This document shows, in pieces, positions 947-56,622 of a stretch of 64,000 nucleotides of DNA; the stretch's first letter is position 1; each line of letters starts with the position of its first letter. This stretch comes from a virus (Duplodnaviria; Heunggongvirae; Uroviricota; Caudoviricetes), in IMG/VR virus record IMGVR_UViG_3300013307_000673; one strand, 5' to 3'. The notes below the pieces were generated by a model. That model did no database searches. It was not told the DNA's origin and was given only the letters and a program-made list of their open reading frames with translations. Made by a program: the position numbers and the translations under genes.

Positions 947-1687
947 TTAACTCACCTTATCATTCGGTAAAGTTACGCCGACGATTTTTTCAAATCTATC
1001 CATATCAACCTTATCATTCATCATATACCGGTTAATATTGAATATATCCACTTTCAACACGTCTACAGGCGCACCATATACACCAAAGGCCGCAATATAC
1101 CCATTACTCTTCAAAGCCTTTACAAGAGCTTTAGAGCGCTTTCCATAAGGATACACATAAATAGGCACAAACTTTCCAGTGCTTTTCATAATCTGTAGCT
1201 TACTTAATGCCACATCATAATCAGGACGCTTGATAAAATCCTTAATGAAATGCGTATGAGAGTGATTCACATATGTAAAGTTATTGGCTTTATACTTCTC
1301 AAAATCTTCCGGCTGAAGATAGGTTTTATTTTTAAACTGCTGATACTCCGTCACAAGCGCAAACATGCCGGGATATTTATATTTTTCAAGAATATCCATT
1401 GCCGACTTCTGAGAAGCCCAACCATCATCAAAGGTGATCACAACCGTTTTAGGCGCAACCTCTTTCTTATTCTGAATATCGGACACCAGCTCTTCACCTG
1501 TAATCACATTGTAGTTATTGCTATGAAGATACTCCATCTGTTGAGCAAATCGCTCTGGCGTGGTATTCATATCGTTTTCAACTTCTGCTATGCGGTGATA
1601 CATGAGAACAACGGCAACATTTTTGGAAAATGCTGCGGCTGGTAAAACACACATCAAAGAGAGGAGTGCCGCTTTTAATAGTTTCAT
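947..1687 (-). CDS. Secreted polysaccharide deacetylase (CE4/NodB domain).
   Basis: N-terminal signal peptide (MKLLKAALLSLMCVLPAAAFS). NodB motifs TFDDGW and HSHTHF, and the LMYHRI block typical of PgaB/IcaB-like CE4 enzymes. Confidence 0.75.
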   Translation of the reverse strand: MKLLKAALLSLMCVLPAAAFSKNVAVVLMYHRIAEVENDMNTTPERFAQQMEYLHSNNYNVITGEELVSDIQNKKEVAPKTVVITFDDGWASQKSAMDILEKYKYPGMFALVTEYQQFKNKTYLQPEDFEKYKANNFTYVNHSHTHFIKDFIKRPDYDVALSKLQIMKSTGKFVPIYVYPYGKRSKALVKALKSNGYIAAFGVYGAPVDVLKVDIFNINRYMMNDKVDMDRFEKIVGVTLPNDKVS

Positions 1688-6227: not shown

Positions 6228-7331
6228 TTAAAAAGCCACCAACCACCCGCGCAGACTGGATTCCTTGTCATCGCCGTATATCGTTCCGCTATGTTTTTCT
6301 TTTAGAATCCCCATAGCTTTATCGACATTATCTGTAATAACCCAATCCATTCTATCCTTTTCTGAAAGATAAATATTATTGGTCAGATACGTTTCCATTT
6401 TAGGACTATTGTTTTGAGGCCTGTCCTTAGAAATAATCGTATAAAAAGCATTAAAGGTCTTAAAAATTGTATAAAGTTTATCATAATCATGCTGTTTATA
6501 AGCCTCTAACATTTTTTTAAGCTCAGCATTCTTCGGCTCTACAACATCATCCATTTCCCCAACCGTTTTTTTAATAAACGTACTGTCTCTATTGTAGTTT
6601 GCAACTAAAAAATTCCTAATCTCAATATATTTTCTTGACTGCTCTGGTCTCAACATAAACAAATTAGAATCAACTCCATTTTCGCTTGAATATCTTATTA
6701 TATTGCTATACATTTTTTCAGGTAAGGATGGATCTTTTATATAATTATCTCTTGCTGAAAAAGAATACTGAGCATAATCAAGCGCCTCTTTTTTACTCAA
6801 ATTATTTTTTATCTTATCTTGATAAAGACGAATATTTTTCTGTAGCTTTTGTATATTTTCATTCCCTTCAGAAAAATATTCATCTTTTGAAAGCATTCCC
6901 ATAAGTGCTGCCAAATGTTTAGTATTATCTATTCCATTATATTTATATTTTGCTCGAACAAAGGCATCAAAAGTATTTGTTTCATTTAGATACGTAAATA
7001 ATGTATTGTTGCGGGAATCCACATAAATAAACTTGAATAACGCCATATCTTTCTCAAAATCACTCTTAGAATAAGGAACGGCATCAGCCTTATTTTTGAA
7101 TGCTGAATACGTTTCAACGCTTTCAAAGTAAGCAGCTCTACTATCAGCAAAGTTTGACATCTTTACACCATTAGATACAGATGTGCCTATATCTAAGGAT
7201 ACAGCAGTCAGACAAAGTAATGACAATGATATAAAGGACTTCTTGAAAAACCCTTTGGATTTGACTACTGAGTTGTTTTTATTTGTTATCTTTTGCTCAA
7301 AAACATTTTCTTGTCTTTTTAGTTCAATCAT
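6228..7331 (-). CDS. Paralog 5 of the N-anchored membrane-protein family, 367 aa.
   Basis: N-terminal basic segment plus one TM helix. Shares the AVPYS..F..D and YK.HDYDKL...F.TFNAF blocks with four upstream paralogs. Confidence 0.6.
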   Translation of the reverse strand: MIELKRQENVFEQKITNKNNSVVKSKGFFKKSFISLSLLCLTAVSLDIGTSVSNGVKMSNFADSRAAYFESVETYSAFKNKADAVPYSKSDFEKDMALFKFIYVDSRNNTLFTYLNETNTFDAFVRAKYKYNGIDNTKHLAALMGMLSKDEYFSEGNENIQKLQKNIRLYQDKIKNNLSKKEALDYAQYSFSARDNYIKDPSLPEKMYSNIIRYSSENGVDSNLFMLRPEQSRKYIEIRNFLVANYNRDSTFIKKTVGEMDDVVEPKNAELKKMLEAYKQHDYDKLYTIFKTFNAFYTIISKDRPQNNSPKMETYLTNNIYLSEKDRMDWVITDNVDKAMGILKEKHSGTIYGDDKESSLRGWLVAF

Positions 7332-7340
7332 TTTATTTCC

Positions 7341-8399
7341 TTAATAATAAAGAGCAAACATGTCGTCATAATAAACAGCATTCTCAGGGGTATATTCTCC
7401 TTTTGCCCTGGCAATAAAGCGAGCACTGTCAAATATCAATGAGCCATCATATATGCCATCAAATAATACAGAGGATATTAAATTGGTTGTTGGCGCATTT
7501 TTATTGGCATAACTCATTGGCTGCTCAACCATCACATAACTAAAAGCACGAGCCATCTGTAGCAGCTTTCTTAGTTTTTCTTTATCTCCTGATTTATAAT
7601 ACTTTTCTATTTCTGAGTTTGCTTTATTGGCAGACGATTCCACATCATGGAAATATTTATTAAGACCTTCGCTTGTTGAAGTTAGTTTTTTTCTATTATA
7701 AGCGATATTAGGATCTATAAGTAATATATTTTCACTGAAACCTTTCTCTTTTAAATAACTATTCATATTATTGTATATTTCTTGATTATCGCTATTCATA
7801 GGACCTAAACTACCGTATATGTTAGATAATCTTAAAGAGCCGGATATAAATTTTCTTGCCGTATCTGGATCATCTTCAGGCTTTATTGTTCTTTCCATCG
7901 TATTAGAAACACTTACAGGGATGTCTTTAAGCTCGCTATCAGGCAATCCTTTTGTCGCCTGCAGTAGCCGCTCATAATTTTCATTTTGGTCTTTATATTT
8001 AAAACCATTAATTATCATTGAATTAATATTATAGCCACGACCTCCTCCTCTACTATTAACTATTTTCCTATACATTACATTATCTTTATGTCCGTATAGA
8101 TAGTCTAATGTTTTTAGATCATAGTTAAACTGCGCATCAGAATAAGGCACAGAATCAATTTGCTTTTTAAAGCTTTCATATTCAGTTAAAACATTATGGT
8201 TATGCACTTTATATTCCGCAATATTACTTATTTTAATCGAATATGTATTTATCAAAGCAACATCCCATGAGGTGATTGCTGCAACAGTTAAACCTACACC
8301 TAAAGCAATACGCTTCAGCCATGAAGCCTTTGCGATTTTATTTTTTGATACCTTGGAATAGGTATATTTTTGTCCAAACAAGCTTTTTGTTTTTAACAT
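7341..8399 (-). CDS. Paralog 4 of the N-anchored membrane-protein family, 352 aa.
   Basis: Conserved blocks: SVPYSDAQF, EKGFSENILLIDP, YYKSGDKEKLRKLLQMARAF, and a C-terminal YTPEN..YYDD.F.LY. Confidence 0.65.
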   Translation of the reverse strand: MLKTKSLFGQKYTYSKVSKNKIAKASWLKRIALGVGLTVAAITSWDVALINTYSIKISNIAEYKVHNHNVLTEYESFKKQIDSVPYSDAQFNYDLKTLDYLYGHKDNVMYRKIVNSRGGGRGYNINSMIINGFKYKDQNENYERLLQATKGLPDSELKDIPVSVSNTMERTIKPEDDPDTARKFISGSLRLSNIYGSLGPMNSDNQEIYNNMNSYLKEKGFSENILLIDPNIAYNRKKLTSTSEGLNKYFHDVESSANKANSEIEKYYKSGDKEKLRKLLQMARAFSYVMVEQPMSYANKNAPTTNLISSVLFDGIYDGSLIFDSARFIARAKGEYTPENAVYYDDMFALYY

Positions 8400-8409
8400 A
8401 TTTTAGTCC

Positions 8410-9459
8410 CTAGAAATATAATGAAAAAAATGAATCATCATAATACAAAGAGTTATCAGGTGTATAATCACCATTTTTCTGAGCAATCCATTTTATAGTT
8501 TCCGCCACACCATAACCATTTTCAGCATCACCTATAAGCTTAAATGAAAGGGGAGGCTCAACTAATCCCACATTATACGTTTTCTGCGCTATCTCTCCCG
8601 CTATGCGATATTTGAATGCATACGCCATCTGGAGCAGCTCTTTCAGCTTCGCCTTATCACCAGAACGATAAACACTCTCAAGCTCAGCATTCGCTTTCTG
8701 AGTAGACTCTCGCACTTTTGTATAAAACTTTTCAATACCTTCAGATCTATCACCTCGTGAAAGAGCAAGATCAGGCGATATGAAAAGAATATTTTCACCA
8801 AATCCTTTTTCTTTGAAATAATGCTCCATGTTTTCATAAAGCCCTTTATTCAAAGATATTCCCTCACCAAAAGTGGCATAGCTTGCGCTCATTCTATATG
8901 AAGCTAATGAGTTCATTGCCCACTTTACTTTATCCTTTTTAACACCCTCATCCAAAGAAAATACTTTGTATATTTCAGGATTTAGATCTTTGAATTCCTT
9001 TTCAGGCATATCTTTTGTTAAGGTTAGTAGCTTATTATACGTTGCGACCTGATCGATATATTTACCACTTCCTAACGTCATCATGCCTAAAAAAGAACCA
9101 TAACCTCCACTGACGCCGCTCATTATTTTGTTATACATAACGTTCTCCTGATGATTATAGATAACATCAAGAACCTTTAAATCCTGATTAAACTGCGCAT
9201 CTGTATAAGGAACTGCATCTATTTGTGATTTAAATGTGCTATAGGATGATAACGATTTATAATGGTTTACTTTGTAGTTTGCTAATGTGTTTACCTTAGC
9301 AACATCACCACTTAATATAGCCACATCACATGCAGCAATACCTGCCACCGTAAACATTACACCTACTATAACTTTTTTAACAAAAGAGGTCTTACTGACC
9401 TTAGCCGATTTCTCTTTATAGGTTATATCGTTATTAAATACACTTTTAAATTTAAACAT
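8410..9459 (-). CDS. Paralog 3 of the N-anchored membrane-protein family, 349 aa.
   Basis: Conserved blocks: AVPYTDAQF, EKGFGENILFISP, YRSGDKAKLKELLQMAYAF, and a C-terminal YTPDN..YYDD. Confidence 0.65.
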   Translation of the reverse strand: MFKFKSVFNNDITYKEKSAKVSKTSFVKKVIVGVMFTVAGIAACDVAILSGDVAKVNTLANYKVNHYKSLSSYSTFKSQIDAVPYTDAQFNQDLKVLDVIYNHQENVMYNKIMSGVSGGYGSFLGMMTLGSGKYIDQVATYNKLLTLTKDMPEKEFKDLNPEIYKVFSLDEGVKKDKVKWAMNSLASYRMSASYATFGEGISLNKGLYENMEHYFKEKGFGENILFISPDLALSRGDRSEGIEKFYTKVRESTQKANAELESVYRSGDKAKLKELLQMAYAFKYRIAGEIAQKTYNVGLVEPPLSFKLIGDAENGYGVAETIKWIAQKNGDYTPDNSLYYDDSFFSLYF

Positions 9460-9474
9460 TTGCAGTATCCTTAT

Positions 9475-10548
9475 TTAGTGCCATAGAATAAAATCATCTT
9501 TATCGTAGAGCGATTCTTTTTCAGGTATTAGTGTTCCTGTCATCTTCTGATATGCCTTCGCGCCTTGTTGTATAGTTTCATAATAATCATAGTTATTATC
9601 AAAATACGTCATGAGCATAGCAGATATAGGGAAGCCTATATGCGCATTTTCTTTTAGAGATTGATCTACAGCAACAGAAGTAAAAGCATTACCGAGCCGG
9701 AACACCTCCCTTAACTTATCCAAATCTCCATGCTTATAGTATGCCTTCAATGTTTCAATATTTAATGCAACCTCTCTATCTATTTTATCTTGTTCACTCT
9801 GATATTCTTTTGAACTTATTTCCCCAAGCTTCATTTTGATATAAGCCGATTTCCATAAATACATATTTTTGCTTATACCATGTTCGCTTAATAATCTTTC
9901 AAAGTTACCATAAATAGGAGCATACGTATTATCAGCAGCAATATTTAAATCACTATTCATTACAACGAATATAGATTTAGCACGCTTCTTTGCCTGCAAA
10001 TCGTCAGAGTAAGAAAATCCATCGCTTTTTATTTTATATTTATCTGTAATACGCTGTATTTTTTCCGCGTTAAGTGTTGAACTTAGGTTATCACCATTCA
10101 CATCATCAACAGATTCTCGATTCAAAAAAGACATCTCTTTTAAATAACCAACAGGATCAGTGTAAGTGTATTTAAGCAGTAAAAGTGTATCAAGACCATC
10201 GCCATAGTTTATTGTATTTCTAAAAGATTTATTACCCTCAATATAGGTTAACTTAAATATGTTTAAATCTCGGTTAAAATCCGCATCTGAATAAGGAACT
10301 GCTTCCATTTTAGATTTAAACGTCGAATAATTATTTATTTGAGCGTTATTATAGGTTTTATAGTCAACCATATCAGCAACATGCTTAATATTGGTCAGGT
10401 TAACCGCCACATCCCATGAGGCTATAGAAGCAATAGAAAGCGCTACGCCTAAAGCAACTCTTTTGAATAGAGATGCCTTATTGATTTTACTTTTGCTTGT
10501 TTCCCTATAGCTAACATTTTTGTCAAAGATATTTTTAGTTTTTAACAT
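9475..10548 (-). CDS. Paralog 2 of the N-anchored membrane-protein family. Start moved to an internal ATG, giving 357 aa.
   Basis: An AAGGA RBS lies 9 nt before the ATG at 10548. The tabled start at 10578 would overlap paralog 1. Conserved blocks: AVPYSDADF and YYKHGDLDKLREVFRLGNAF. Confidence 0.6.
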   Translation of the reverse strand: MLKTKNIFDKNVSYRETSKSKINKASLFKRVALGVALSIASIASWDVAVNLTNIKHVADMVDYKTYNNAQINNYSTFKSKMEAVPYSDADFNRDLNIFKLTYIEGNKSFRNTINYGDGLDTLLLLKYTYTDPVGYLKEMSFLNRESVDDVNGDNLSSTLNAEKIQRITDKYKIKSDGFSYSDDLQAKKRAKSIFVVMNSDLNIAADNTYAPIYGNFERLLSEHGISKNMYLWKSAYIKMKLGEISSKEYQSEQDKIDREVALNIETLKAYYKHGDLDKLREVFRLGNAFTSVAVDQSLKENAHIGFPISAMLMTYFDNNYDYYETIQQGAKAYQKMTGTLIPEKESLYDKDDFILWH

Positions 10549-10558
10549 TATGAATTCC

Positions 10559-11650
10559 TTATGGCCTATACCAAACATCGAATATGCCTTTTTTATATAT
10601 TTTTTCTTTTTCTGGTGTTAACGAGCCAGTATATTTAGAATACAACTCAGCAGGCTTCAAGAAATTAGTTGTGCCTAACATTTCATCCTGATATAAATAA
10701 AATGAAAAAGAATATCCTAAACGGTAATCATTTTTGATGCCATCAATATAATCAGAAACGACTACTGTCGAAAAGCCGTTACCTATTTTGAATAGCTCCC
10801 TAATCTTTTTAAAATCGCCTTTTTCATAATAAGCACGTAATGCTTCATTATTCTTATTCATCTGATTGTCATAATTTTCATATATTGCTTTTGCTTCAGG
10901 ACTTCCCGATTTACCGATTACTGCATCTAGCTTTTTGACATCTTCTTTTTTGGGAAAATAAGCTTGAGCATTAAACCCTTTCTCCGTCAACAACTGACTA
11001 AGATTATCATAAATTTTACTTTCACTATGCATATAAGTATAAGAGGAGCCTAGCGACAGGTTTGCTCTTATTGACTTGATCATTCCAGGATCACTAAAAT
11101 CTTTCTTATAAGGTTTATGCTTGTCATTAATAGCGCTAATCTTGCCGTAAAAGTCTTTTTCTCTTTCACCTGTCATTTCTTTAACATCACGCCCTTTTGT
11201 GAAGTTATAGACATCTTTATAAAACTCTCCAGGATTATCAAGATTAAAATTCATCTGCAGCATCGTATTTAGCTCCACACCACTACCTACCGGGCCATCT
11301 CTCCACATGTATTTTTTGAAAGCCGCATTATCTGTGCCTCTATAGCCATATATATATTCAAAGGTATTCAGATCTTTTTTGAACTGCGCATCCGTGTAAG
11401 GCACCGCCATCACTCTCGCCTTAAAAGAACTGTAGTTATCAAGTGAGGCATTATCCGCTATCTTGTAATCAACCATTTTATTGATATGAGCAATATTTGA
11501 GGTGGTTACAGCAACATCGTAGGTAGCAAAACCTCCAAATAAACAGAAAGCACCTATAACGATAGGCTTCCACATCTTTCTTTTTATAACAGATTTATCT
11601 GCAGCTACAGTCCTTTGACCGAACAGTGTTTTATTGCCAAACTTTAACAT
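10559..11650 (-). CDS. Paralog 1 of the N-anchored membrane-protein family, 363 aa.
   Basis: GAGGA RBS. TM helix IVIGAFCLFGGFATY. Conserved blocks: AVPYTDAQF and YYEKGDFKKIRELFKIGNGF. Preceded by a sigma70-like promoter and by terminator 11722-11752. Confidence 0.65.
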   Translation of the reverse strand: MLKFGNKTLFGQRTVAADKSVIKRKMWKPIVIGAFCLFGGFATYDVAVTTSNIAHINKMVDYKIADNASLDNYSSFKARVMAVPYTDAQFKKDLNTFEYIYGYRGTDNAAFKKYMWRDGPVGSGVELNTMLQMNFNLDNPGEFYKDVYNFTKGRDVKEMTGEREKDFYGKISAINDKHKPYKKDFSDPGMIKSIRANLSLGSSYTYMHSESKIYDNLSQLLTEKGFNAQAYFPKKEDVKKLDAVIGKSGSPEAKAIYENYDNQMNKNNEALRAYYEKGDFKKIRELFKIGNGFSTVVVSDYIDGIKNDYRLGYSFSFYLYQDEMLGTTNFLKPAELYSKYTGSLTPEKEKIYKKGIFDVWYRP

Positions 11651-21499: not shown

Positions 21500-22123
21500 T
21501 TATTTTCCTGCCTGATATTCCTGCTGGAGCTTTCTTACACGCTCAAGCTCACTTTCTTCATGAACTACACCGCCTGTGTTAAGATCCAGATAGAACTGAA
21601 TCAAGTCACCGTAATCTTTCACATCATAGATCTGGAACAGGAGATGCTTACGGCGCGGCGAGAAGGCTGTTTTAAGCAGTGAAGCCTCATCATATCGCCC
21701 ACCGAAAATCTTAAACTTGCCATCCATGAAATCCACAACGGCAGTTAAACGCTGCAGGCCATCCACACAGAACATATCGTAGCCATGCATTCCCGTCGCC
21801 TCAGCACTGAAATCATGAAACTTGGCGCAGTTAAACTTGATTTCAAGTGGCGCGGTTCCGCGAAGCAAATTTTCAACATATCCAATCTGTTTTTCACGCG
21901 ACCACACATGCCCGCGCTGGAAATCAGGATTTAGGTTAAACACGCCACCATCCAGCTCCGCTTGCTCAGCCTGACGTGCAAGCTCACGTTTTACATTATG
22001 GAGATCGACAGACACACTGTAGTTGCAGGTGCGCATAGGCCGGATAATACGATAAAGCTCGCGCTCTTCTTCACTGAGTCCAGCCCAATGTGAAGGACTA
22101 ACACCAAATTGTTCTTTTTCCAT
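21500..22123 (-). CDS. DUF262 (ParB/sulfiredoxin-fold, GmrSD N-terminal-like) domain protein, about 207 aa.
   Basis: Motifs NPDFQRGHVW and VDGLQRLTAV (the DGQQR signature of DUF262). Start moved to MMEKEQ, which has a GGTGA RBS. The tabled start at 22186 overlaps a TTGCTT-17-TATAAT promoter. Confidence 0.55.
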   Translation of the reverse strand: MEKEQFGVSPSHWAGLSEEERELYRIIRPMRTCNYSVSVDLHNVKRELARQAEQAELDGGVFNLNPDFQRGHVWSREKQIGYVENLLRGTAPLEIKFNCAKFHDFSAEATGMHGYDMFCVDGLQRLTAVVDFMDGKFKIFGGRYDEASLLKTAFSPRRKHLLFQIYDVKDYGDLIQFYLDLNTGGVVHEESELERVRKLQQEYQAGK

Positions 22124-22157
22124 CATAATCACCATAGAGTTCATTAATATGGTTGTC

Positions 22158-22186
22158 ATTATACAGACATCAGAAATCCAAAGCAA
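22158..22186 (-). promoter_or_regulatory. Sigma70-like promoter (TTGCTT-N17-TATAAT) for the DUF262 gene.
   Basis: Hexamers with exact 17-nt spacing immediately downstream of terminator 22188-22212. This implies the real CDS start is downstream of the tabled one. Confidence 0.5.
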
Positions 22187-23772: not shown

Positions 23773-24321
23773 TTAACTGAATGTCTTTCTCAAAGATTCA
23801 AGTAAACTTTGCGTTTCATACTCATGAATCATGACATTGTAATTATCATAATAATAGCCCATTTCTGTATCGGTATACTCTGAATACTCCAGGCCTGATA
23901 ACACACGCTCTATCTGTATCGCCGTCATGTCAGGACGCAAAAACTCAAGCACATCTAACAGACCTTCCGCGTATTTAGGTTCACGCTCTGCTTCTAATAC
24001 AGTTTCTCCACCATAGCCATCAGCACCTGTTCCACCAGTTTTCCATTTTTTCTTCAGAGGGAACAAGCCGGGACGATCCAGCTCTTTTTCGATATAGCCT
24101 TCAAAATGCGCTTCAGAAATAAATGAATGAACATCAATCAAGCCGTCAGCATTTTTTCTCACTGGCAACTCGCGCTCATTTGGATGATTGCGCCCCATAC
24201 TGCTACGTTCAACACCTGCAGCCGACAGTTTTTCCATCTCCTCTACTAACAGCTCACCTTCAGATTTCGCATAAACAAACTCTTCAGTTATTTTAGGACG
24301 CTTTTTCGTTGTCGTATTCAT
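23773..24321 (-). CDS. Hypothetical protein, 182 aa. Paralog of 23339..23692 with an N-terminal extension.
   Basis: Shares the C-terminal 120-aa domain with the neighbouring gene. Terminator 23712-23750 lies between them. Confidence 0.5.
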   Translation of the reverse strand: MNTTTKKRPKITEEFVYAKSEGELLVEEMEKLSAAGVERSSMGRNHPNERELPVRKNADGLIDVHSFISEAHFEGYIEKELDRPGLFPLKKKWKTGGTGADGYGGETVLEAEREPKYAEGLLDVLEFLRPDMTAIQIERVLSGLEYSEYTDTEMGYYYDNYNVMIHEYETQSLLESLRKTFS

Positions 24322-24433
24322 TTTTATATCCTCTTATATAATAATAGCATAATAACATAAATAATATTCTAATCGCAAATAAAAAAGGCACACCGCGAAA
24401 GTATGCCTTTTAGAAATAATCATGATTAAGGAT

Positions 24434-24994
24434 TTAATAAAATGAAAAAACAATCGTTGAGCTTGTTCCCGCAGAGTTACATGCTGTCGCCGCATTTGCT
24501 ACACTCCAGTCAACATTAGATAAATCACTTTTAGCATAACTACCGCCTATGTTAACCATAGACATACTTGGAGCAACTGCTGTTACAAGCTTAACGCAAG
24601 CATCTTGAGGGACGTTGGCATAACTTATATTGAACACAACCTTACCATAGGAAGCATAATTTGTAGCAGACAACTTTACTTTACCTTTAAAACCATTAAC
24701 CACATCTGATACTGTTCCACCACTTTGAACTAACATATTATCAGGAAATATTTGCGCATTTATTCCTACTGTATTATTTACTGTTGTTATATTCGTTGTG
24801 GATGAATATAAAGCCAGTAATCCTGCTCTAATGGTCGCAATATTTTTAGATTCAGCGTCAACTATTTGCGAAGTTCTTACTTTAGGATAAACAATAAAAG
24901 CCGCCACTATTAGCGCCGCTATTATTCCTAAAACCAATAATAACTCTAACAAAGAAAATCCTTTTAACTTTCTATTCCTAATAAAAATCTTCAT
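24434..24994 (-). CDS. Type IV pilin / pseudopilin-like protein, 186 aa.
   Basis: Class III prepilin leader MKIFIRNRKLKG|FSLLELLLVLGIIAALIVAAF, with Gly at -1, Phe at +1 and Glu at +5. C-terminal Cys pair (DACVKL...ATACNS), typical of the pilin disulfide loop. Confidence 0.7.
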   Translation of the reverse strand: MKIFIRNRKLKGFSLLELLLVLGIIAALIVAAFIVYPKVRTSQIVDAESKNIATIRAGLLALYSSTTNITTVNNTVGINAQIFPDNMLVQSGGTVSDVVNGFKGKVKLSATNYASYGKVVFNISYANVPQDACVKLVTAVAPSMSMVNIGGSYAKSDLSNVDWSVANAATACNSAGTSSTIVFSFY

Positions 24995-25102
24995 TTATAC
25001 TTTCTTCCTTATTGTTAATGAAATACAATTCGAAAGTAATAAAAAAAATACAATATAACAATAGCTATACATAATTATTTTTAATGTATTTGAATAATAC
25101 AA

Positions 25103-25130
25103 ATAAAAAAGCACCCGAAGGTGCTTAATA
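25103..25130 (-). terminator. Intrinsic terminator (AGCACC-CGAA-GGTGCT).
   Basis: GC stem with a T-run on the minus strand, downstream of 25156..25341. Confidence 0.65.
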
Positions 25131-25155
25131 TAAACTAATGTTTCATTTTTTATGT

Positions 25156-25341
25156 TTACGGCATGAAAGCCATGATCACACAGCAGATCACAAAAGAAAT
25201 AGAACCTCCTTGAAGAAAGCGAATAACATTATCAGCAACGTTAATTACCGGATCATCTATAGCCATGAAGCCACCTATTAAAAACGATGCAAACAACAAC
25301 ATTATTTTGAACCACGAACACTCCAAGTTTCCAAATGTCAT
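25156..25341 (-). CDS. Small membrane protein, 61 aa.
   Basis: Two hydrophobic helices (IMLLFASFLIGGFMAI, SISFVICCVIMAF). The overlapping plus-strand ORF 25265..25468 is rejected. Confidence 0.4.
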   Translation of the reverse strand: MTFGNLECSWFKIMLLFASFLIGGFMAIDDPVINVADNVIRFLQGGSISFVICCVIMAFMP

Positions 25342-25428
25342 TTTTATCCTTGCCTTATCACTTGATTTTAAAAGCTATTCTAGCATCACTAACTATGATT
25401 GCATAGCGAAATCTTTTTTATTTTGGTT

Positions 25429-25456
25429 TTTAGTTGGCTGGAAAGCGTGTTATACT
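25429..25456 (+). promoter_or_regulatory. Sigma70-like promoter (TTTAGT-N16-TATACT) for the ferredoxin gene.
   Basis: Hexamers 25429-25434 and 25451-25456. A GAGGAG RBS lies 8 nt before the ATG at 25481. Confidence 0.45.
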
Positions 25457-25480
25457 ATGAACACTTAATGAGGAGTACGT

Positions 25481-25720
25481 ATGAGAAACATTCATGTCAA
25501 AATAACCGACTTTAATCACACATCGTTGCTTCACTATCTTTTAGCTAAAGAAATCATTGTAGAGTTTAATTGCATGGATGGATTTTGTGGCGCTTGCCAC
25601 AGCAAACTGATCTCAGGAGAGATTATGATGGTCAAAGATGACTTGGCTTATAAACCATCAGGGGATTTCCTGCTATGTTGCGCTGTGCCTAAAACCGATA
25701 TTGAGATCGCTATATATTAA
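25481..25720 (+). CDS. yfaE: YfaE-like 2Fe-2S ferredoxin, 79 aa (class Ia RNR maintenance ferredoxin family).
   Basis: Cys pattern C-x4-C-x2-C...CC. Block-wise similarity to E. coli YfaE (VEYQCREGYCGSCRTRLVAGQV vs VEFNCMDGFCGACHSKLISGEI; ILPCCCRAKGDIEIE vs LLCCAVPKTDIEIA). Confidence 0.6.
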   Translation: MRNIHVKITDFNHTSLLHYLLAKEIIVEFNCMDGFCGACHSKLISGEIMMVKDDLAYKPSGDFLLCCAVPKTDIEIAIY

Positions 25721-33321: not shown

Positions 33322-34233
33322 ATGAATATTTTGAAAGATGAGAAAACTAACTTGGGCGCAGCATATCTTGGTGTAATTCTTACGCTTGTTTTCCTTGCTG
33401 TAGCTGTTTATGCAGGCATGAACTGTAAAGTTTTAGTTCAGGAAGCAGGATTCTATGATAGTAAAATCGTAGAAGATTTTTCTGTACCGTATGCTTGCGC
33501 AGCTTTCATTGCGGCATTCTTCTCAGTTATTTCATTCTTAAATAGCTTTATTATCATCTCTCCCAACCAAAAAGTGGTCGCAAGTTTCTTAGGAAAATAC
33601 CGGGGTACACTTACAGGAGAAGGATTCACATTGGTTAACCCTTTCTTCTCCTTTGAAAAAATCAGCACTAAGATTGGCACCTTTGAGACGCAAGAAACCA
33701 AAATCAATGACAAAGAAGGGATTCCTTTGAATGTTTCGATGGTTGTTAACTATCGTGTTGATCAGGCCGCGCCTTTTCATTATAACGCAGAAAAGCCGGA
33801 CGATATTATTCGCAACGCCAGTGAGAGCGAACTGAGAACTATCGTTACACAACACGCTTTTGATAGTGACAAAAATGAAGATGAAACACTCAGTAAAAAT
33901 CTGGATATATTCTCAAGAAACTTGGTTGAACGTATCAACGTGCGCCTGAAAGAGATTGGCGTGATCGTAACCAGCGCTAATATTACTAAAATTTCTTATG
34001 CACCAGAAATCGCTCAATCAATGCTGCAGCGTCAGCAAGCCAAAAAATTGGCTGAAAGTCGTCGTGAAATCGTAGATGCTGCAGTATTAACAGTGAAGGA
34101 CGCTGTTCAAGACATTCAAACTAAGATTGGTGTCACTTTTGATGACACTGAAAAGAAACGCCTTGTAGAAAAACTGATGGTGGTTATCGTTTCCGACAGG
34201 CCTACCACACCTGTTATCTCCCTCGATAACTAA
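33322..34233 (+). CDS. SPFH (stomatin/prohibitin/flotillin/HflKC, band 7) domain membrane protein, 303 aa.
   Basis: N-terminal TM helices, then ISPNQKVVASFLGKYRGTL..GFTLVNPFF..EKISTKIGTFETQ...IPLNVSMVVNYRV, typical of an SPFH core. Coiled-coil C-terminus. Confidence 0.6.
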   Translation: MNILKDEKTNLGAAYLGVILTLVFLAVAVYAGMNCKVLVQEAGFYDSKIVEDFSVPYACAAFIAAFFSVISFLNSFIIISPNQKVVASFLGKYRGTLTGEGFTLVNPFFSFEKISTKIGTFETQETKINDKEGIPLNVSMVVNYRVDQAAPFHYNAEKPDDIIRNASESELRTIVTQHAFDSDKNEDETLSKNLDIFSRNLVERINVRLKEIGVIVTSANITKISYAPEIAQSMLQRQQAKKLAESRREIVDAAVLTVKDAVQDIQTKIGVTFDDTEKKRLVEKLMVVIVSDRPTTPVISLDN

Positions 34234-34380: not shown

Positions 34381-35574
34381 TTACTGGTTTAAGATATGAA
34401 GCTCAATGCTGGTATCAAGACTTTCACCTATTACATCAGCAAGCACATTATAGAAAGATTCGCCATTATCCCATTCTTCTGGAGAGATAATCAGCTTATC
34501 TTTGCCTTCAATAATCTCACAAAGGTAGGCGTATTCTTCATCTTCAATGTCTGAAGTTTCTTCCCATTCAGTTTTAATGTTTGATAGTTTAACTTGCTGC
34601 CATTCTTTAGATTCTTTGCAAAACTCAACGTTTACACCAACATCATCATCTTCCCAATTCACTTTGATACTCTCAACAGCATCAGCAAGGTGGCGTAGAA
34701 AGCTTGCAGTATCCTTAGCTTGACCACCTTGCCCTGAAGTCATAATAGGCCGAATCATAACGTTCTCTACAAGCATTGTCTCAAGTAACCGTTCTGTTTC
34801 GGCTAGGGCGCGGAACACTTCTTCTTCAGCTTTTTCAAAGCCATTATTTTTAGCAAAAGTAATGACTTCTTTATGAACTTTTGATCCGCTTACATTTGAT
34901 ACAGCTTGACCAATAAAGCTAAACTTAATCTTGTTCAAGTTAGTTTTCGCTATACTTTCAAAAGCTATCTTATTAGCAATATCAGTTTGTTGCTCGAAAG
35001 TGATTTTACCAGACTCAACATCTGCTTCCAGTCTTGCTTTATTGATGTCAGCCGCTTCTTTAAATCCCATCATGTTATTATAACAGCTTAACACTTCCTT
35101 GATTTTGGCATCAATTGTTTCTTTTGAGTGAATCATTACCTGATAAACGGATTCATGGATAGCAAAGGCCGCAACAAAACACTTCTCCCCTTGAAAATCC
35201 TTAAGGAACAATCTCCCACTGCGAACCATATCCTGAATCTTCTGCCATGTTAAATCTTTTACATTTACATCCATATGATCATGACAATCGTTATATTCTT
35301 CGCCCTCTATAGAGATATTCTCTGAATATTCTTGTTTAATATAATTTTGAATATACTTGGCAAACAAAGAATCTTCGTCAAAATCATAATTATTGAAATC
35401 AGCATATTCTGCAGGAATAGCTCCACCGCCAATAATCTTAAAGTTATCCCAGGGATAGCATTCACCACCTTTACCAATTACCTGACCTTCAGATACAACA
35501 TAAAATAAGCGCACCTTATTTCCTTCACGGATTGGCGCACGGCTGACAGCACACGTTGTATTAAACGATCCCAT
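34381..35574 (-). CDS. Hypothetical protein, about 397 aa, starting at MGSFNTT.
   Basis: A GAGGGT RBS precedes the ATG at 35574. The tabled start at 35586 lies inside that RBS. Confidence 0.5.
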   Translation of the reverse strand: MGSFNTTCAVSRAPIREGNKVRLFYVVSEGQVIGKGGECYPWDNFKIIGGGAIPAEYADFNNYDFDEDSLFAKYIQNYIKQEYSENISIEGEEYNDCHDHMDVNVKDLTWQKIQDMVRSGRLFLKDFQGEKCFVAAFAIHESVYQVMIHSKETIDAKIKEVLSCYNNMMGFKEAADINKARLEADVESGKITFEQQTDIANKIAFESIAKTNLNKIKFSFIGQAVSNVSGSKVHKEVITFAKNNGFEKAEEEVFRALAETERLLETMLVENVMIRPIMTSGQGGQAKDTASFLRHLADAVESIKVNWEDDDVGVNVEFCKESKEWQQVKLSNIKTEWEETSDIEDEEYAYLCEIIEGKDKLIISPEEWDNGESFYNVLADVIGESLDTSIELHILNQ

Positions 35575-35716
35575 TTTTACCCTCATTAGTTATAAAATAT
35601 CACCGTCATTTTACGCTAAAGGCATTTTATAAGCAAGAAAAATCAATTTTACTCGTTTTTTATGTATAAAAAAAGCGCCATGAAAGGCGCTTATTATTTC
35701 TAAAACATTTATTGAT

Positions 35717-36712
35717 TTAAATGTGACAGTCAACCGCTGTTAACAGCGTATCTTCAGGAAGACCACGCAGCATCTCGTAGAACTCATCGTTCCAGTCGTT
35801 CTGAGCTTTTTCATCCATCGCCATACCAAACCAGCCCATTTGTCCCTTTTCAGACCATACACCATCCTTCAGGAAAGCAAACGGCGTGATGATTGATTTA
35901 CGCTGTCTCTCAACATATTCCTCACGGCTATTGCCAAAGATTTCATAAAAATCACCCCAAAAATCAAAACGAGCTTCATTAAAATCCTTAACAACCGGAT
36001 GATTATGATATTCATTTCTTGCTGCATCAATATCCGCACCATGCTTTTCCCTGATCTCTGTCCATGACGGATATTGACGGCCTTTCAAAATAGACTCAAT
36101 CTTATCATAGGTTGCGTTTGCCTCAGCAATAGCCTCAGCCTCCATACCTTCAAAGTCAATATCTTTCAAACGGATAACATCATAGCGACCTGCCTCAGCA
36201 GCTTCCGTCATCAGACCAGGACGGCCTTGTTCTCCACCCACACCCGGTTTACCTTTAAAATATCCTGTCCAGCGACCGCCTACCTGATACCAATCCCATT
36301 TTGCGTTAGGGTTATGCCAATATCCATAAGCATTAAGTTCTTCTGAATATCCATAGCCACAATAATCTCTAAGATAGCTTTCAAATGTTGGATAGAGTTC
36401 TGAAACCGCACCCTCATAAAGTCTAGCACCTTCAGGAAGTTCAAGCACTGTCTCACCGAAAGGTGAACTCTCGCTTTTGATAGACTTTTCAAATCTGCGA
36501 ACAACATCATCAGAACGATGGTATTTTACACCATCCAGCTCAACGATTTGCGTAGTTTTGTTTTTGTAATCCTTTTGCTCTTGAGAAGACTCACTCTTAT
36601 TTTCGAATTCAAAATAAGGCGAGCTTTCGGGATGAGATGACTGCTCCTCGAAAGGCGCTAAAGCCTCTTCAAGATTAACATCACCAGCAACAATAACGGT
36701 AAAATGCGACAT
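35717..36712 (-). CDS. Hypothetical protein, 331 aa. Larger paralog sharing its C-terminal domain with 32689..33183.
   Basis: Shared C-terminal about 60 aa ending ...AVDCHI. Antisense ORFs are rejected. Confidence 0.5.
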   Translation of the reverse strand: MSHFTVIVAGDVNLEEALAPFEEQSSHPESSPYFEFENKSESSQEQKDYKNKTTQIVELDGVKYHRSDDVVRRFEKSIKSESSPFGETVLELPEGARLYEGAVSELYPTFESYLRDYCGYGYSEELNAYGYWHNPNAKWDWYQVGGRWTGYFKGKPGVGGEQGRPGLMTEAAEAGRYDVIRLKDIDFEGMEAEAIAEANATYDKIESILKGRQYPSWTEIREKHGADIDAARNEYHNHPVVKDFNEARFDFWGDFYEIFGNSREEYVERQRKSIITPFAFLKDGVWSEKGQMGWFGMAMDEKAQNDWNDEFYEMLRGLPEDTLLTAVDCHI

Positions 36713-38326: not shown

Positions 38327-39391
38327 ATGAAACACATAAGAGATATTTCTGTTAGGGCTGTTGCTTCATCGGTATTATTTATTTTTTCATTTTATGCATT
38401 TATTCCTTTTGTATTTTATTTAACCGGAGATATATCAACATCTCTGATATTATTTTCCGCTATTCCTTTTCTGCTATTACCTGCATCACTTTTTATTCGG
38501 CATTACATTACGGTTAATCTGATTAACCCATTATCCTTATTACGTAAAGATATTCATAACCTCAGCAACAAAGACTTCTGTAAGAGCGCATTTTGCTCTC
38601 CTGATCTTGATGTAGTCAGAGAAATGTTAAGCCAATGGGCAACTCAGCAGCAGGAAGCCTCACAGCGTCTTAATGACAGTCTTATCTCACTGGATAAAGG
38701 TAATCTCGCGCTACTCTCCAGAAATGAAACACAGAGCCGCGCTGTTGAGAAAACCGCATATAATGTCAATGAGCTTTATCAGGTCGCCTCACACAACGAA
38801 CAGGAGTCCAATCAGGCCTTTTCATTGGCTTCTATGACACTTGCTGGTGTTCAGGAGGCCATAGAGAATGTTTCACTTATGACAAACTCTACAAGCACTA
38901 TAAAGGACCAGTCTTTGGAGATTAAAAAGATATCAGACTTTATCAGTGAGATGGCCTTTAAAACAAACTTACTTTCATTGAACGCCTCAATTGAAGCCGC
39001 AAGAGCGGGCGATCATGGCAGAGGCTTTTCTGTTGTAGCCAATGAAGTGAGATTGCTGGCTAAAAGTTGTGCTGATTCCGCTCAGGAAATCAAGGCGCTT
39101 GTGAATGATACCTCCTCTCAAATAGAAGATACATTCAAACTGAATAATAAAAACGCGGCTTATATCCATGAAATGCTTACGATGATAGAGAGAACTAATG
39201 TGGCGCTTTCTACGATTAGCACATCATCCAAAGAACAACGCATGAAAATAGAATGTATGAAGAACTCTATTGATAATATTATTATGGCGGTTTACGAAAA
39301 TACAACTTACTCCGAGGAAACTGCTAAGATATTAAACAATATTCGACATGATCTTGATGATATTGAAAAGGAGCATAAAAAGGCCGCATAA
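38327..39391 (+). CDS. Methyl-accepting chemotaxis protein (MCP) signalling-domain protein, 354 aa, with an N-terminal two-helix membrane hairpin and no periplasmic sensor.
   Basis: Near-perfect MCP highly-conserved-domain signature FKTNLLSLNASIEAARAGDHGRGFSVVANEVRLLA. Two adjacent TM helices at residues 10-58. Confidence 0.75.
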   Translation: MKHIRDISVRAVASSVLFIFSFYAFIPFVFYLTGDISTSLILFSAIPFLLLPASLFIRHYITVNLINPLSLLRKDIHNLSNKDFCKSAFCSPDLDVVREMLSQWATQQQEASQRLNDSLISLDKGNLALLSRNETQSRAVEKTAYNVNELYQVASHNEQESNQAFSLASMTLAGVQEAIENVSLMTNSTSTIKDQSLEIKKISDFISEMAFKTNLLSLNASIEAARAGDHGRGFSVVANEVRLLAKSCADSAQEIKALVNDTSSQIEDTFKLNNKNAAYIHEMLTMIERTNVALSTISTSSKEQRMKIECMKNSIDNIIMAVYENTTYSEETAKILNNIRHDLDDIEKEHKKAA

Positions 39392-48865: not shown

Positions 48866-50770
48866 TTATCTCTTCAGGAAATACTTCTCAAACAACTCAA
48901 TCTGCTGAGTCAGGAAGTCTTCCTGATATTCAATCACCACATCATCACCTTTTGGCGTCAGAATCGGCGTCATGAAGCCTACCACTGTAGCCAATCCTAA
49001 GCCACTCACACGCTCTAACACCTCTTTATGAACCAACTGATTAACTTTGGTGCCATAGGTCTCTACGAGGGCTTTAGCTGCGTTAAAATCGCCTTCTGAT
49101 TTAATACGCTGAATCTCTGCCAGCAACTGACCGACCAGAGCGCGAACACCATCAAGATCATTAACCTCAATGAAATACTGACCCTCTTTCACAACCATCG
49201 CCATCTGCTCAGGCTTTGCTTTCTCAAGCAACCATGTAGAGATAATCTGGCGGTTTCTGAAGTGAGCTTGCGTCAGATCAGCACCCAAACGCACCCGGCG
49301 CAACTGACCAATAGCACCATTAGTGAAATATGCCACGTATTTAGCCATTGCTGCATCGCGAACATTGACATCCTCAGCAAAAATACCAATCTCTTTTAGC
49401 TTCTCATCAGGGATATAATAAAGCGCAACCAGATCAGCACGACATTCCTCAATTACTGAGTAATACGTGGACAGAACATCACTGTTAACGCCGTCCAGCA
49501 CCTTGCCTGATCCATGACCAGCAATCTCATGTAAGTCCGTATGAAGAACGCCTGTCTCATTGCCATAACGCTTAATCAGATCCTGATATTTATCCAGATA
49601 CAAGGCTTTGGTTAATGGCACATCATAGCTACTACGTGAGGAATCCACGTTAGACAACGTAACGGATTTAGAACCAAACTTTTTACGAATCCAGTCGCTG
49701 TTAGGCAAGTTAATCCCTAAAGGCAGCACAGGAGAGGTTTCTCCAGCCATAGAAATAACATTGATAGAACTCGCAGATAGCCCTACAGCCTTATCTTTCT
49801 TAAAGCGCTTATCAAACGGGAGATTATCCTCAAACCACTGGATATTATCAATGATACGCTTCACTTTAGCTGTCTGTGCTGGATTTTTAAACGCAACCAA
49901 ACTCTCAAAGTTACACGCCACACCTAGCGGATCTTTATAAGATTCAATCAAGCCATTTACGAAATAAATCGAACTATCCTGATCTTGCGTCCACGCTACA
50001 CAGTGCTTATCAAAATCAGCAGCATCACCCGTCTCATAGAAGGTAATCAGTGTCTCAATAGAGGCATGTTGTTTTTCATTTTCAGTGTAGTTCAGAGCAA
50101 GCTTAAGCTCTTTAATGATTTCTTTAACATAGCGACCATAAAGACCATCAGCGAAGATGACTTCTCGTTTAATCTCACCCGTGAGATGATTTTTTAGGAG
50201 TTTCTCGTTAAATCCGTAAGGTGGAATCTCATCATTATCATGTTTCGGGTAGGCTTCTTTGCGAAAAGCAATTACTTCCTCGGTGGTAAGGCCAGCATAG
50301 AAGTTAACACCAGACTGCTTAACCACATCTACGCCGTCTTTTTGAACGGTGCGGTATAAAGGTAGATTATAGGTATCGTTCTCAAAAAGAAATATTTCAA
50401 TCGATAAGGCAGCTAATGAACAGTAAACATTAGAACACAATACATCAAATTGCTCACTATCCAGAGGCAGTGTCAGTTTTTCACCTGTTGTGGTATGATA
50501 AAGACCACCGTGCGCAAAGAGCATAAATAAACTATCACGAACCTGCTTAAAAGCTTCAGTTTCTTTATCAAGATGTTTATACATATGGATTAGTGCAGGA
50601 ATAACGATAAGGTTAGCGCTTGATCCCTGAGTCAGCCCGATCACTTTCCCCCACATACCCGCTTCTGACAGATGATAAGCCAGACGTTTAGTGCGGCTAT
50701 CGAGTGATGAGAAGCCTTCAGTGTCCAGCTTTACGATTGCAATATCATTAAGACGTTCAGAATATGTCAT
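48866..50770 (-). CDS. Dipeptidyl-peptidase III-like zinc metallopeptidase (M49 family), 634 aa.
   Basis: M49 signature motifs HEIAGHGSGK (HExxGH) and IEECRADLVALYY (EECRAE/D) at the expected spacing. Full-length, comparable to cellular DPP III. Confidence 0.7.
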   Translation of the reverse strand: MTYSERLNDIAIVKLDTEGFSSLDSRTKRLAYHLSEAGMWGKVIGLTQGSSANLIVIPALIHMYKHLDKETEAFKQVRDSLFMLFAHGGLYHTTTGEKLTLPLDSEQFDVLCSNVYCSLAALSIEIFLFENDTYNLPLYRTVQKDGVDVVKQSGVNFYAGLTTEEVIAFRKEAYPKHDNDEIPPYGFNEKLLKNHLTGEIKREVIFADGLYGRYVKEIIKELKLALNYTENEKQHASIETLITFYETGDAADFDKHCVAWTQDQDSSIYFVNGLIESYKDPLGVACNFESLVAFKNPAQTAKVKRIIDNIQWFEDNLPFDKRFKKDKAVGLSASSINVISMAGETSPVLPLGINLPNSDWIRKKFGSKSVTLSNVDSSRSSYDVPLTKALYLDKYQDLIKRYGNETGVLHTDLHEIAGHGSGKVLDGVNSDVLSTYYSVIEECRADLVALYYIPDEKLKEIGIFAEDVNVRDAAMAKYVAYFTNGAIGQLRRVRLGADLTQAHFRNRQIISTWLLEKAKPEQMAMVVKEGQYFIEVNDLDGVRALVGQLLAEIQRIKSEGDFNAAKALVETYGTKVNQLVHKEVLERVSGLGLATVVGFMTPILTPKGDDVVIEYQEDFLTQQIELFEKYFLKR

Positions 50771-52148: not shown

Positions 52149-52273
52149 ATTTATTCTCCATCGATTATTTACGCTCTATATCATTATGCTTTTCAAATAG
52201 CAAATCTATATAGTTGTCAATTTGATTTACCCCCTGCTAAATGATACAGTTTAGAAAAATAAAGGAGATTACA

Positions 52274-53698: not shown

Positions 53699-53828
53699 AT
53701 AGTCTTATCAGGTTAGGTGTTGTATCGGCCCACCTCTTAAACGATAATAGGAAAGTCTGGTTTCGCTCCAAACGTGCTATTACCTTTCACATCCACTCAC
53801 GTTGTCGGACGCAACCTAATAAAACAGG

Positions 53829-53903
53829 TGATTTCTGCAGGACTCGAACCTACGTCGTCAGCGGATTCTCCCGCCAATGCTCTACCCGTTGAGCTAAAAA
53901 ATC
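53829..53903 (-). tRNA. Aberrant tRNA-like gene. Acceptor, D-arm and T-arm are canonical, but the anticodon arm is a tight GCGGG-AGAA-TCCGC hairpin (or an 8-nt loop GGAGAATC). No CCA encoded.
   Basis: GATTTTTTAGCTCAACGGGTAGAGCATTGGCGGGAGAATCCGCTGACGACGTAGGTTCGAGTCCTGCAGAAATCACC. No 7-nt anticodon loop can be drawn. Confidence 0.4.
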
Positions 53904-55193: not shown

Positions 55194-55585
55194 GCCTGAG
55201 CCTCTTTTTTAGTCAGTGATTCTTTCCATGCTTTGTGATTTGCTTCAATAATAGCAATACCGCGATTCAATGCATTTTCCATATGCGAAATAACATCTGC
55301 AGGAATACCAGACTCTCTCATTTCAGCAATAAACGCATTGGTATGCGCTTTCAGATCGAGAGCGTCCTCACGTGAGGCCATAGCATTGTCATTCACTTCA
55401 AACGATTTAGCTTCAGCTTTATTGTAAAGCTCCATAACTCTTACCGCAAGCCATGACATAAAGCCAGCATGACGATAGCTCACATTGCGGCACAGCATAC
55501 CTGATACATAGCTATCTTTTCTAAACTTAATGCGGTCAATCACATCCACATCAACGTTAATGTCACTGATTTCAATCATATCCAT
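55190..55585 (-). CDS. Hypothetical protein, 131 aa.
   Basis: Complete ORF. Terminator 55660-55700 follows on the minus strand. Confidence 0.5.
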   Translation of the reverse strand: MDMIEISDINVDVDVIDRIKFRKDSYVSGMLCRNVSYRHAGFMSWLAVRVMELYNKAEAKSFEVNDNAMASREDALDLKAHTNAFIAEMRESGIPADVISHMENALNRGIAIIEANHKAWKESLTKKEAQA

Positions 55586-55704
55586 TTAGCTTTCGCCTTC
55601 TTTTCTGATTAGAGTAGATAGCCATTATACAACAAAGCACGATCATGCACAACCTTTTCATAGCCATAGAAAATCCCCGCCGAGGCGAGGAGTTATTTTA
55701 GGTA

Positions 55705-56028: not shown

Positions 56029-56048
56029 ATTATTCTCGCACCTTTTTA

Positions 56049-56267: not shown

Positions 56268-56271
56268 CTAT

Positions 56272-56607: not shown

Positions 56608-56622
56608 TCTTATTTTCTCTTC

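Follow-up and report, generated by a model that had tools for sequence, protein, structure and literature searches.

This analysis concerns a single gene in a 64,000-nt stretch of DNA from an uncultivated virus of the class Caudoviricetes (IMG/VR record IMGVR_UViG_3300013307_000673; hereafter the window), which is predicted to encode the precursor of a type IV pilin. The open reading frame (ORF) opens with ATG and specifies 186 residues (Table 1), and no second prepilin ORF was found in the window. Its translation starts MKIFIRNRKLKG↓FSLLELLLVLGIIAALIVAAF, where the arrow marks the predicted cleavage site, and a longer quotation of the N-terminus reads MKIFIRNRKLKG↓FSLLELLLVLGIIAALIVAAFIVYPKV. 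The elements of a class III signal are all present, namely a short basic leader, Gly at position -1 and a hydrophobic stretch of ~20 residues (MKIFIRNRKLKG↓FSLLELLLVLGIIAALIVAAFIV), and the mature protein would be 174 residues long. The only cysteines, at residues 133 and 172, form a C-terminal pair that is predicted from the sequence to close the D-region with a disulfide bond. An alignment of 46 relatives shows K11, G12, F13, S14, L15, L16, E17, C133 and C172 to be invariant, and E17, which is the Glu at +5 of the mature protein, is retained in all phage paralogs as well. The original prediction, made from the letters of this DNA, had placed a phage-encoded pilin with a class III signal, a hydrophobic alpha1 N-helix and a C-terminal Cys pair at exactly this position; the three features are all found in the ORF, and the strand, which had been left unstated, is minus.

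Family models, a profile match to solved type IVb pilins and a fold search agree in assigning the protein to the type IV pilins, as its earlier designation had it. The Pfam search that had been suggested as a check returns both PilS (PF08805; 77.2 bits against a cut-off of 22, E 1.6e-21, residues 46-183 of the prepilin) and N_methyl (PF07963; 24.2 bits against 21.2, E 2.3e-5), and TIGR02532 is also passed (20 bits against 16.3). Bundlin (PF05307) is not listed for the window protein itself at E <= 1, and relatives do pass that model. Homology to the type IVa pilins FimU and PilA is not evident, with type IVa and type II secretion system (T2SS) models matching the N-terminal motif only, far under their cut-offs. 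A profile built from the 46 sequences matches the solved type IVb pilins S. Typhi PilS (1Q5F, E 2.4e-5), BfpA (1ZWT), CofA (9IUF) and TcpA (8UHF). An AlphaFold2 model built on the same alignment (mean predicted local distance difference test score, pLDDT, 85; predicted template modelling score, pTM, 0.75) has an unbroken helix from residue 15 to residue 62 followed by an alpha/beta head. A predicted fold unrelated to pilins would have counted against the original prediction; the fold of the model is that of a pilin. The 16 best Foldseek matches in the PDB are all type IVb pilins (9IUF, 3FHU, 8UHF, 3HRV, 1OQV and 1Q5F among them), led by the CofA pilus 9IUF (E 2.6e-6, template modelling (TM) score 0.66), with a probability of 1.00 for the first 15, 0.97 for 1Q5F and 0.08 for the match that follows.

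Table 1. Coordinates of the pilin gene, its parts and its immediate surroundings in the window
Feature	Position	Strand	Remarks or basis
Prepilin ORF (end coordinate includes the stop codon)	24434..24994	-	ORF listing; 186 aa + stop; type IVb (PilS/bundlin family) major-pilin-like
Leader peptide, residues 1-12, MKIFIRNRKLKG	24959..24994	-	Net charge +5; last residue Gly-1, after which a prepilin peptidase is predicted to cut
Alpha1-N assembly helix, residues 13-40, FSLLELLLVLGIIAALIVAAFIVYPKVR	24875..24958	-	Includes Phe+1 and Glu+5
D-region, Cys133 to Cys172	24479..24598	-	Most variable portion of the head
Shine-Dalgarno-like AAGGAAG (GGAAG core)	25004..25010	-	9 nt upstream of the ATG; direct reading
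Intrinsic-terminator-like hairpin closing the upstream unit	25109..25126	-	Terminator scan
Intrinsic-terminator-like hairpin, 12-bp stem and T-run	24383..24411	-	23 nt past the pilin stop codon
2Fe-2S ferredoxin gene (79 aa), divergent neighbour	25481..25720	+	Pfam Fer2 E 3.6e-8; context only
Block of ~1.5 kb including the pilin gene, 97-100% DNA identity (one 150-nt bin 93%) to IMG/VR and Logan relatives	24066..25565		Sliding identity profile

The signal differs from the textbook form for this class of head. In a typical type IVb signal the leader runs to ~15-30 residues and the mature protein does not start with Phe; TcpA and CofA have longer leaders, and neither these two nor BfpA begins its mature sequence with Phe. 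The leader of the window pilin has 12 residues (7-13 in the paralogs, counted from the nearest start codon) and the first mature residue is Phe, a type IVa/T2SS-like combination that is common to the bacterial sister clade. TcpA, CofA and BfpA share the overall alpha/beta head of the window model at 13-18% identity, and are encoded in dedicated operons. Judged from its sequence, the window pilin combines a type IVb head, of the PilS/bundlin type, with a short signal of type IVa character. Signals of the type IVa/T2SS kind are processed by housekeeping peptidases such as GspO and PppA, and it is our conjecture that processing of this sort would suit an orphan pilin.

The gene is an orphan in the DNA examined. 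Pfam scans of the 30 largest ORFs of the window revealed no prepilin peptidase (Peptidase_A24), ATPase, platform protein or secretin, and tblastn with all R64 Pil proteins against 295 kb comprising the window and related phage loci returned PilS homologs only. A dedicated assembly operon, for which pilL-pilV of R64 served as the reference, was not found in the window or in these 295 kb of phage loci, and what is found is a lone phage-resident pilin gene of the P-FimU/P-PilA type discussed below. The proposal that the protein needs the prepilin peptidase of the host fits this DNA, in which neither an A24 peptidase nor another assembly gene was found in the window. R64 (IncI1) PilS and S. Typhi PilS (1Q5F, 3FHU) belong to the same Pfam family as the window pilin and have a disulfide-bounded D-region, and the predicted structure matches S. 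Typhi PilS 3FHU with a Foldseek probability of 1.0 and TM scores of 0.53-0.64. However, R64 PilS has a 23-residue leader, a G↓WAILEQG N-terminus and a head only ~27% identical to that of the window pilin, and it is encoded within a full pilL-pilV operon with the PilU peptidase adjacent. The IncI1 R64 thin pilus was considered as a partner for the phage pilin and judged unlikely, given that R64 PilS and PilV begin G↓WAILE and G↓WASLE where the phage and island pilins have G↓F(S/T)LLE, and that the heads are 27% identical.

The organization of the local DNA is consistent with a self-contained gene. Intrinsic-terminator-like hairpins stand on both sides of the pilin gene (Table 1), which therefore looks like a stand-alone transcription unit; the terminator scan reported 4 such elements in 1.6 kb against 0.9 expected. 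The upstream hairpin is separated from the pilin ATG by an AT-rich gap of ~115 nt, which must hold the pilin promoter. The Shine-Dalgarno-like sequence within it has a counterpart in the orthologs, where an AAGGA/AGGAG-like element occurs at the same place.

Pilin genes of this kind form a family among related phages, with 2 to at least 7 paralogs in each. A 259-kb IMG/VR contig that carries the locus has a second pilin, of 171 aa, ~4 kb beyond window position 64000; relatives of an 86%-identical ortholog in Logan, ENA and NCBI have up to four pilins within 20 kb; and a 342-kb contig encodes five pilins of full length (181-188 aa), one truncated copy of 130 aa and one extended pilin-like protein of 310 aa, distributed over at least four regions. 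The full-length paralogs all keep Gly-1, Phe+1, Glu+5 and the Cys pair and all pass the PilS model, and the type IVb head of most of them passes the bundlin model. The truncated copy (L032, 9998-10390) retains the leader, alpha1 and half a head without cysteines, and matches the first half of the PilS model. The 310-aa protein (L033, 10004-10936) has six cysteines and a long C-terminal extension; its one match, weak and under the Pfam cut-off, is to the N-terminal methylation motif. The shorter of these two proteins may be a subunit that caps or poisons, the longer one a subunit resembling an adhesin.

Divergence within the family is distributed unevenly along the protein. The leader evolves fast (25-58% identity between orthologs), yet is always basic. 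Alpha1-N is 96% identical inside the phage clade and 90% identical between phage and bacteria, with 26 of 28 residues of the window pilin shared with an E. coli island pilin; between phage orthologs the proportion of nonsynonymous differences (pN) in this segment is 0-0.05, against a proportion of synonymous differences (pS) of ~0.5. For the D-region the corresponding identities are 49% and 30%, and its pN/pS of 0.2-0.6 never exceeds 1. Across whole orthologs the ratio of nonsynonymous to synonymous divergence (dN/dS) is 0.05-0.3, with synonymous sites saturated. The guanine-plus-cytosine (GC) content of the phage pilin genes is 29-35%, like the phage background, and that of the bacterial relatives 40-44%. 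A neighbour-joining tree, calculated without bootstrap support, places the window-type pilins in a clade beside that of the bacterial Enterobacterales, with four divergent phage paralogs branching deeper. Taken together, these comparisons argue for an old, functional and diversifying family of phage pilins. Recent capture from a host was considered and rejected on GC content, saturation of synonymous divergence (dS) and position in the tree.

The same data bear on whether the gene is a passenger, captured recently and without a role, or whether its head is a virion part used as decoration or fibre. Accessory regions of jumbo phages do gather captured genes, and some relatives of this phage group have unusual, whisker-like tail appendages. 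Set against this are strong purifying selection over saturated synonymous divergence, phage-like GC content, a separate phage clade with deep paralogs in the neighbour-joining tree, and a copy number that ranges from 2 to at least 7 per genome. Moreover, a near-invariant signal for membrane insertion and cleavage makes little sense for a protein assembled into virions in the cytoplasm, and the window pilin model has no significant match in the viral structure library BFVD. We consider a passenger or virion component very improbable, and the original suggestion that the virion itself might use the pilin is unlikely on these grounds.

The closest relatives of the window pilin are encoded by mobile elements of bacteria. 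Full-length relatives at 44-52% identity are confined to Enterobacterales reference genomes, apart from one 7-kb contig that is probably mis-binned. They belong to orphan pilS-pilV modules of islands and plasmids, annotated as 'type 4 pilus major pilin' and in some cases as BfpA, and agree with the window pilin at ~90% of alpha1-N positions. Both groups have the short KKG↓FSLLE signal, the Cys pair and no assembly genes within 10 kb, and some of the island and plasmid elements carry two or three pilin copies, as the phages carry several. In every chromosomal context examined, the neighbours of the pilin are a shufflon-type adhesin (PilV), a MobA/MobL relaxase, a P4-type integrase and a small TraD-like gene, none of which was found in the window phage; PilV, MobA and the integrase occur in most of the 31 bacterial or plasmid loci. 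The island PilV adhesins are 33-61% identical to R64 PilV. A relative beside its own assembly genes would have named the cognate machine, but none of the 31 loci provides one, and homologs of the R64 assembly proteins within ~10 kb are likewise absent from all 31. From this gene content, the pilin subfamily as a whole appears to act in trans, served by a machine whose genes lie elsewhere, because no assembly genes were found within ~10 kb of its bacterial and plasmid members. Our search of the literature found no description of the orphan pilS-pilV island arrangement or of this subfamily working in trans. The modules occur at island loci L018, L021-L025 and L036-L055 of our collection, and IMG/VR lists several such islands as viral contigs of 37-62 kb (L026-L030). 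Two or three major pilin genes are present on each of two plasmids of 30-41 kb, whose records annotate no assembly gene; pTy031_01 (L035, NZ_KX833210.1) is complete and circular, and the record of the K. grimontii plasmid is linear. The plasmids L020 (NZ_CP055415.1) and L035 are typed as non-mobilizable and carry a DotA/TraY-family gene, LPD7 and several ankyrin-repeat genes. Ankyrin-repeat genes also lie near phage pilins, at 52241-53233 in the window and at 10927-11880 in L006.

These bacterial relatives raise the question of whether the window is phage DNA at all, or a piece of plasmid, mobilizable island or chromosome mislabelled by viral-detection pipelines. The nearest annotated relatives reside on islands and plasmids, IMG/VR includes such islands among its viral contigs, a related locus forms part of a 982-kb contig with the label Shigella flexneri, and there is no recognisable structural phage gene inside the 64-kb window. 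The content of the window nevertheless points strongly the other way. Its GC content of ~37% is far under that of Enterobacterales, its small ORFs are densely packed and mostly on the minus strand, and 12 tRNA genes occur within 19 kb, between 42 and 61 kb. The products of two adjacent genes, at 34381-35586 and 35717-36712, match PHROGs at E 9e-67 and 3e-64 and share 32-36% identity with hypothetical proteins of jumbo myoviruses of ~350 kb (CBB, GAP32, BF, the pEa_SNUABM phages and fHe-Yen9-04); in fHe-Yen9-04 the two homologs lie ~7 kb apart, and synteny is partial. These matches of neighbouring genes to neighbouring genes speak against a bacterial fragment. No relaxase, integrase or PilV was found in the window, unlike the island loci, and a DNA-level search gave no match in plasmid collections or in 5,426 complete E. 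coli genomes. The locus is present on IMG/VR viral contigs of 259,022 bp (IMGVR_UViG_3300031087_000527, where the pilin protein is 100% identical) and 341,648 bp (IMGVR_UViG_3300011202_000010). Window positions 55567-64000 match the 259-kb contig at 99.5%, and on sequence comparison the window is from a different strain. Megablast of 10 kb around the pilin against deposited phage genomes gave no match, and a tblastn search with the pilin as query gave nothing at E <= 1e-3 in 50,697 such genomes. The window is thus very probably, as read from its genes, the accessory region of an uncultivated jumbo myovirus, and the claim that the pilin is phage-encoded holds; an origin in non-phage DNA is highly unlikely. 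The assignment to a phage rests on gene content and the IMG/VR contigs and not on a virion.

A related phage region, L007, has four pilins in 20 kb (GCA_052639295.1, contig ACARGJ010000001.1, 850985-871545). Its contig of 982,256 bp belongs to an assembly labelled Shigella flexneri, a label that is the sole direct hint at a host. The contig could be a chimera, a concatemer made up of copies of a ~330-kb phage, or an element of much greater size.

Phage-encoded pilins as a concept were published in 2025-2026, and the bacterial examples are all of type IVa and from phages of ordinary size. Sztanko et al. (Cell Rep 2026; PMC12952977) described P-FimU and P-PilA, mimics of pilus subunits in Pseudomonas and Xylella phages, together with PilA-like genes in virulent phages; the prophage protein P-FimU was tested and works as a receptor replacement, and a similar role was proposed for the virulent-phage genes. 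Like the window pilin, P-FimU and P-PilA are encoded by lone phage genes without assembly genes and combine a conserved N-terminal helix with variable exposed parts, which suggests incorporation into host pili, and their diversity suggests competition between phages. They differ in being type IVa proteins (FimU a minor and PilA a major pilin), usually one per genome in phages of ordinary size, whereas the window pilin has a type IVb PilS/bundlin head and resides in an Enterobacterales jumbo phage group with 2 to at least 7 paralogs. Function has been tested for P-FimU. The second precedent is archaeal. Xiang et al. (Cell Rep 2025; PMC12426801) found that the SNJ2 provirus of Natrinema encodes the pilins PilA1 and PilA2 without machinery of its own, and that these hijack a host secretion system to form the dominant filaments, pili that serve as the receptor for a second virus. 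Like the window phage group, SNJ2 has more than one pilin in a viral genome; unlike the window pilin, its proteins are archaeal type IV pilins of a temperate pleolipovirus and have no sequence relationship to PilS. Our literature search found no paper linking jumbo phages with encoded pilins. What is new here, from the sequence comparisons, is the union of a PilS/bundlin head with a type IVa-like signal, the jumbo-phage carrier, the presence of up to seven or more copies and the kinship to island orphan pilins.

The explanation that we favour, and to which we give somewhat less than an even chance when taken whole, is that the ORF is a functional gene for a type IVb (PilS/bundlin family) major prepilin, carried as a self-contained accessory unit by an uncultivated Enterobacterales jumbo myovirus; that judgement covers the borrowing of machinery and a payoff in receptor replacement or masking. 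During infection the prepilin would insert into the inner membrane by way of its hydrophobic N-terminal helix, and a prepilin peptidase supplied by the cell would cleave after Gly12 and methylate the Phe at +1. The pilus machine of the cell or of a resident conjugative element would then polymerise the phage pilin, alone or mixed with resident pilins, so that the infected cell would show pili with an exposed surface, the D-region, specified by the phage. We infer this course from membrane insertion through processing and assembly by a cellular or co-resident machine to display at the surface. The benefit would lie in replacing or masking a receptor in phage-phage competition, by which other pilus-binding phages would be blocked or sibling virions kept off the infected cell. 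By analogy, replacement or masking is the most likely payoff, because it has been shown for the prophage protein P-FimU and proposed for the PilA-like genes of virulent phages (PMC12952977). The SNJ2 pilins, with their use of host machinery (PMC12426801), are a second precedent. The sharing of 26 of 28 alpha1-N residues with an island pilin speaks for compatibility, and the bacterial members of the subfamily, which lack nearby assembly genes, offer a precedent for action in trans. The earlier idea that a phage pilin could enter host pili and block superinfection is plausible.

The multiplicity of pilins and the truncated copy could also be read as the means of a dominant-negative attack, in which an excess of prepilin jams the peptidase, platform or fibre of the host and shuts down type IV pili, the T2SS pseudopilus or both, with the receptor lost or conjugation stopped as the outcome. 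There are several paralogs in each genome, and among them the 130-aa copy of L032 has a parallel in a truncated N-terminal PilA-like phage protein; assembly has reportedly been disrupted by over-expression of one pilin (PMC12952977). Housekeeping peptidases could be titrated, since the short signal KKG↓FSLLE is like those of type IVa and T2SS substrates. However, the N-terminal helix alone would suffice for pure jamming, whereas the window pilin is full length, keeps its disulfide pair and has a head under purifying selection throughout (pN/pS 0.1-0.6), and the diversification of paralog heads looks like selection on an exposed surface. We regard a dominant-negative role as unlikely.

The nature of the head invites a further possibility, namely that the pilin directs adhesion, with bundling or adhesive type IVb pili aggregating or attaching cells and thereby raising host density for giant virions that diffuse poorly, or helping the infected cell in some other way. 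The passing of the bundlin model by most paralogs is in keeping with this, as is the pairing of the bacterial sister clade with PilV adhesins of mating cell-cell contact, and the SNJ2 pilins, having hijacked host machinery, promote biofilm and motility (PMC12426801). Yet the scanned phage loci yielded no adhesin resembling PilV, and the benefit is speculative. Phage-directed adhesion thus seems improbable to us.

Several considerations weigh against assembly of the phage pilin by borrowed machinery for the purpose of receptor replacement. The best-known thin pilus of Enterobacterales, that of R64, has a pilin with a very different N-terminus, and its PilS is only 27% identical; a suitable pilus machine may be absent from many hosts. 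The host itself is deduced only from the taxonomy of homologs and one assembly label. The benefit of receptor masking is established mainly for temperate phages, and what a lytic jumbo phage would gain from it is a matter of conjecture. The orphan status of the gene covers 64 kb of the genome to which the window belongs and pieces of ~20 kb from relatives, so that a peptidase or ATPase of the phage's own could lie elsewhere in a genome of 260-340 kb. At the level of transcription, the 115-nt gap upstream of the gene contains no sigma-70 consensus, and an alignment of seven ortholog upstream regions revealed no conserved motif beyond the ribosome-binding site.

The locus extends the idea of phage pilins to the type IVb pili of enteric bacteria, a class to which conjugative thin pili and colonisation pili belong, and to giant lytic-type phages with arsenals of several pilins, and it exposes a wider pattern in which a whole bacterial sister clade consists of orphan pilins on mobilizable elements. 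If phage pilins are assembled, the adhesion, conjugation efficiency or phage susceptibility of gut Enterobacterales would be altered, and the pilins would help in tracing which hosts and receptors uncultivated jumbo phages use. A broader and decidedly speculative generalization, which we think doubtful, is that orphan PilS-type pilins are a common currency of Enterobacterales mobile elements, with islands, small plasmids and jumbo phages all feeding pilins into a pilus machine encoded elsewhere. Were it true, the parasite would decide how the pilus looks and what it binds, and a jumbo phage could re-dress the pili of its host for receptor camouflage or cell-cell contact. The outcome would be an undescribed layer of conflict among phages, conjugative elements and hitchhikers over a shared surface organelle.

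The surroundings of the pilin gene vary between strains. The ~1.5-kb block of high identity listed in Table 1 is flanked by DNA that is 73-95% identical (mostly 83-92%) between phage strains, and within it the pilin gene is identical to that of L015 at 558 of 561 nt. The patch, seen against L015 and L001, suggests a recent recombinational exchange of a cassette or unusually strong constraint. The divergent ferredoxin neighbour is kept beside the window-type pilin in L001-L003 and L006-L011.

The remainder of the window has features of its own. Pfam domains among its 30 largest ORFs are those of polysaccharide deacetylase, PcfJ, GmrSD_N, Band 7, the signalling domain of methyl-accepting chemotaxis proteins, HNH, peptidase M49, ankyrin and ferredoxin. 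The chemotaxis domain (PF00015, E 1.2e-33) belongs to a 354-aa protein encoded at 38327-39391 on the plus strand, which also matches phrog_8572; a chemoreceptor-like signalling module is unusual phage cargo. Five tandem paralogous ORFs of 349-367 aa on the minus strand (6228-11650) share ~20% mutual identity and 24 invariant columns, and match nothing in Pfam or PHROG, which makes them an expanded family without an assigned function. One of the 12 tRNA genes (53827-53903, minus strand) is read by ARAGORN with a four-base anticodon (agaa), and Rfam aligns it as a tRNA (47.2 bits) whose anticodon loop has 10 positions against the usual 7; it could, from its sequence, be frameshift-suppressor-like or contain an intron. 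The peptidase M49 gene (dipeptidyl-peptidase III family, E 3.9e-56), at 48866-50770 on the minus strand, is also kept in L006-L008. Further accessory genes encode a Band 7/SPFH protein (33322-34233, plus strand), a GmrSD_N-domain protein (21500-22186, minus strand) and a polysaccharide deacetylase (947-1687, minus strand).

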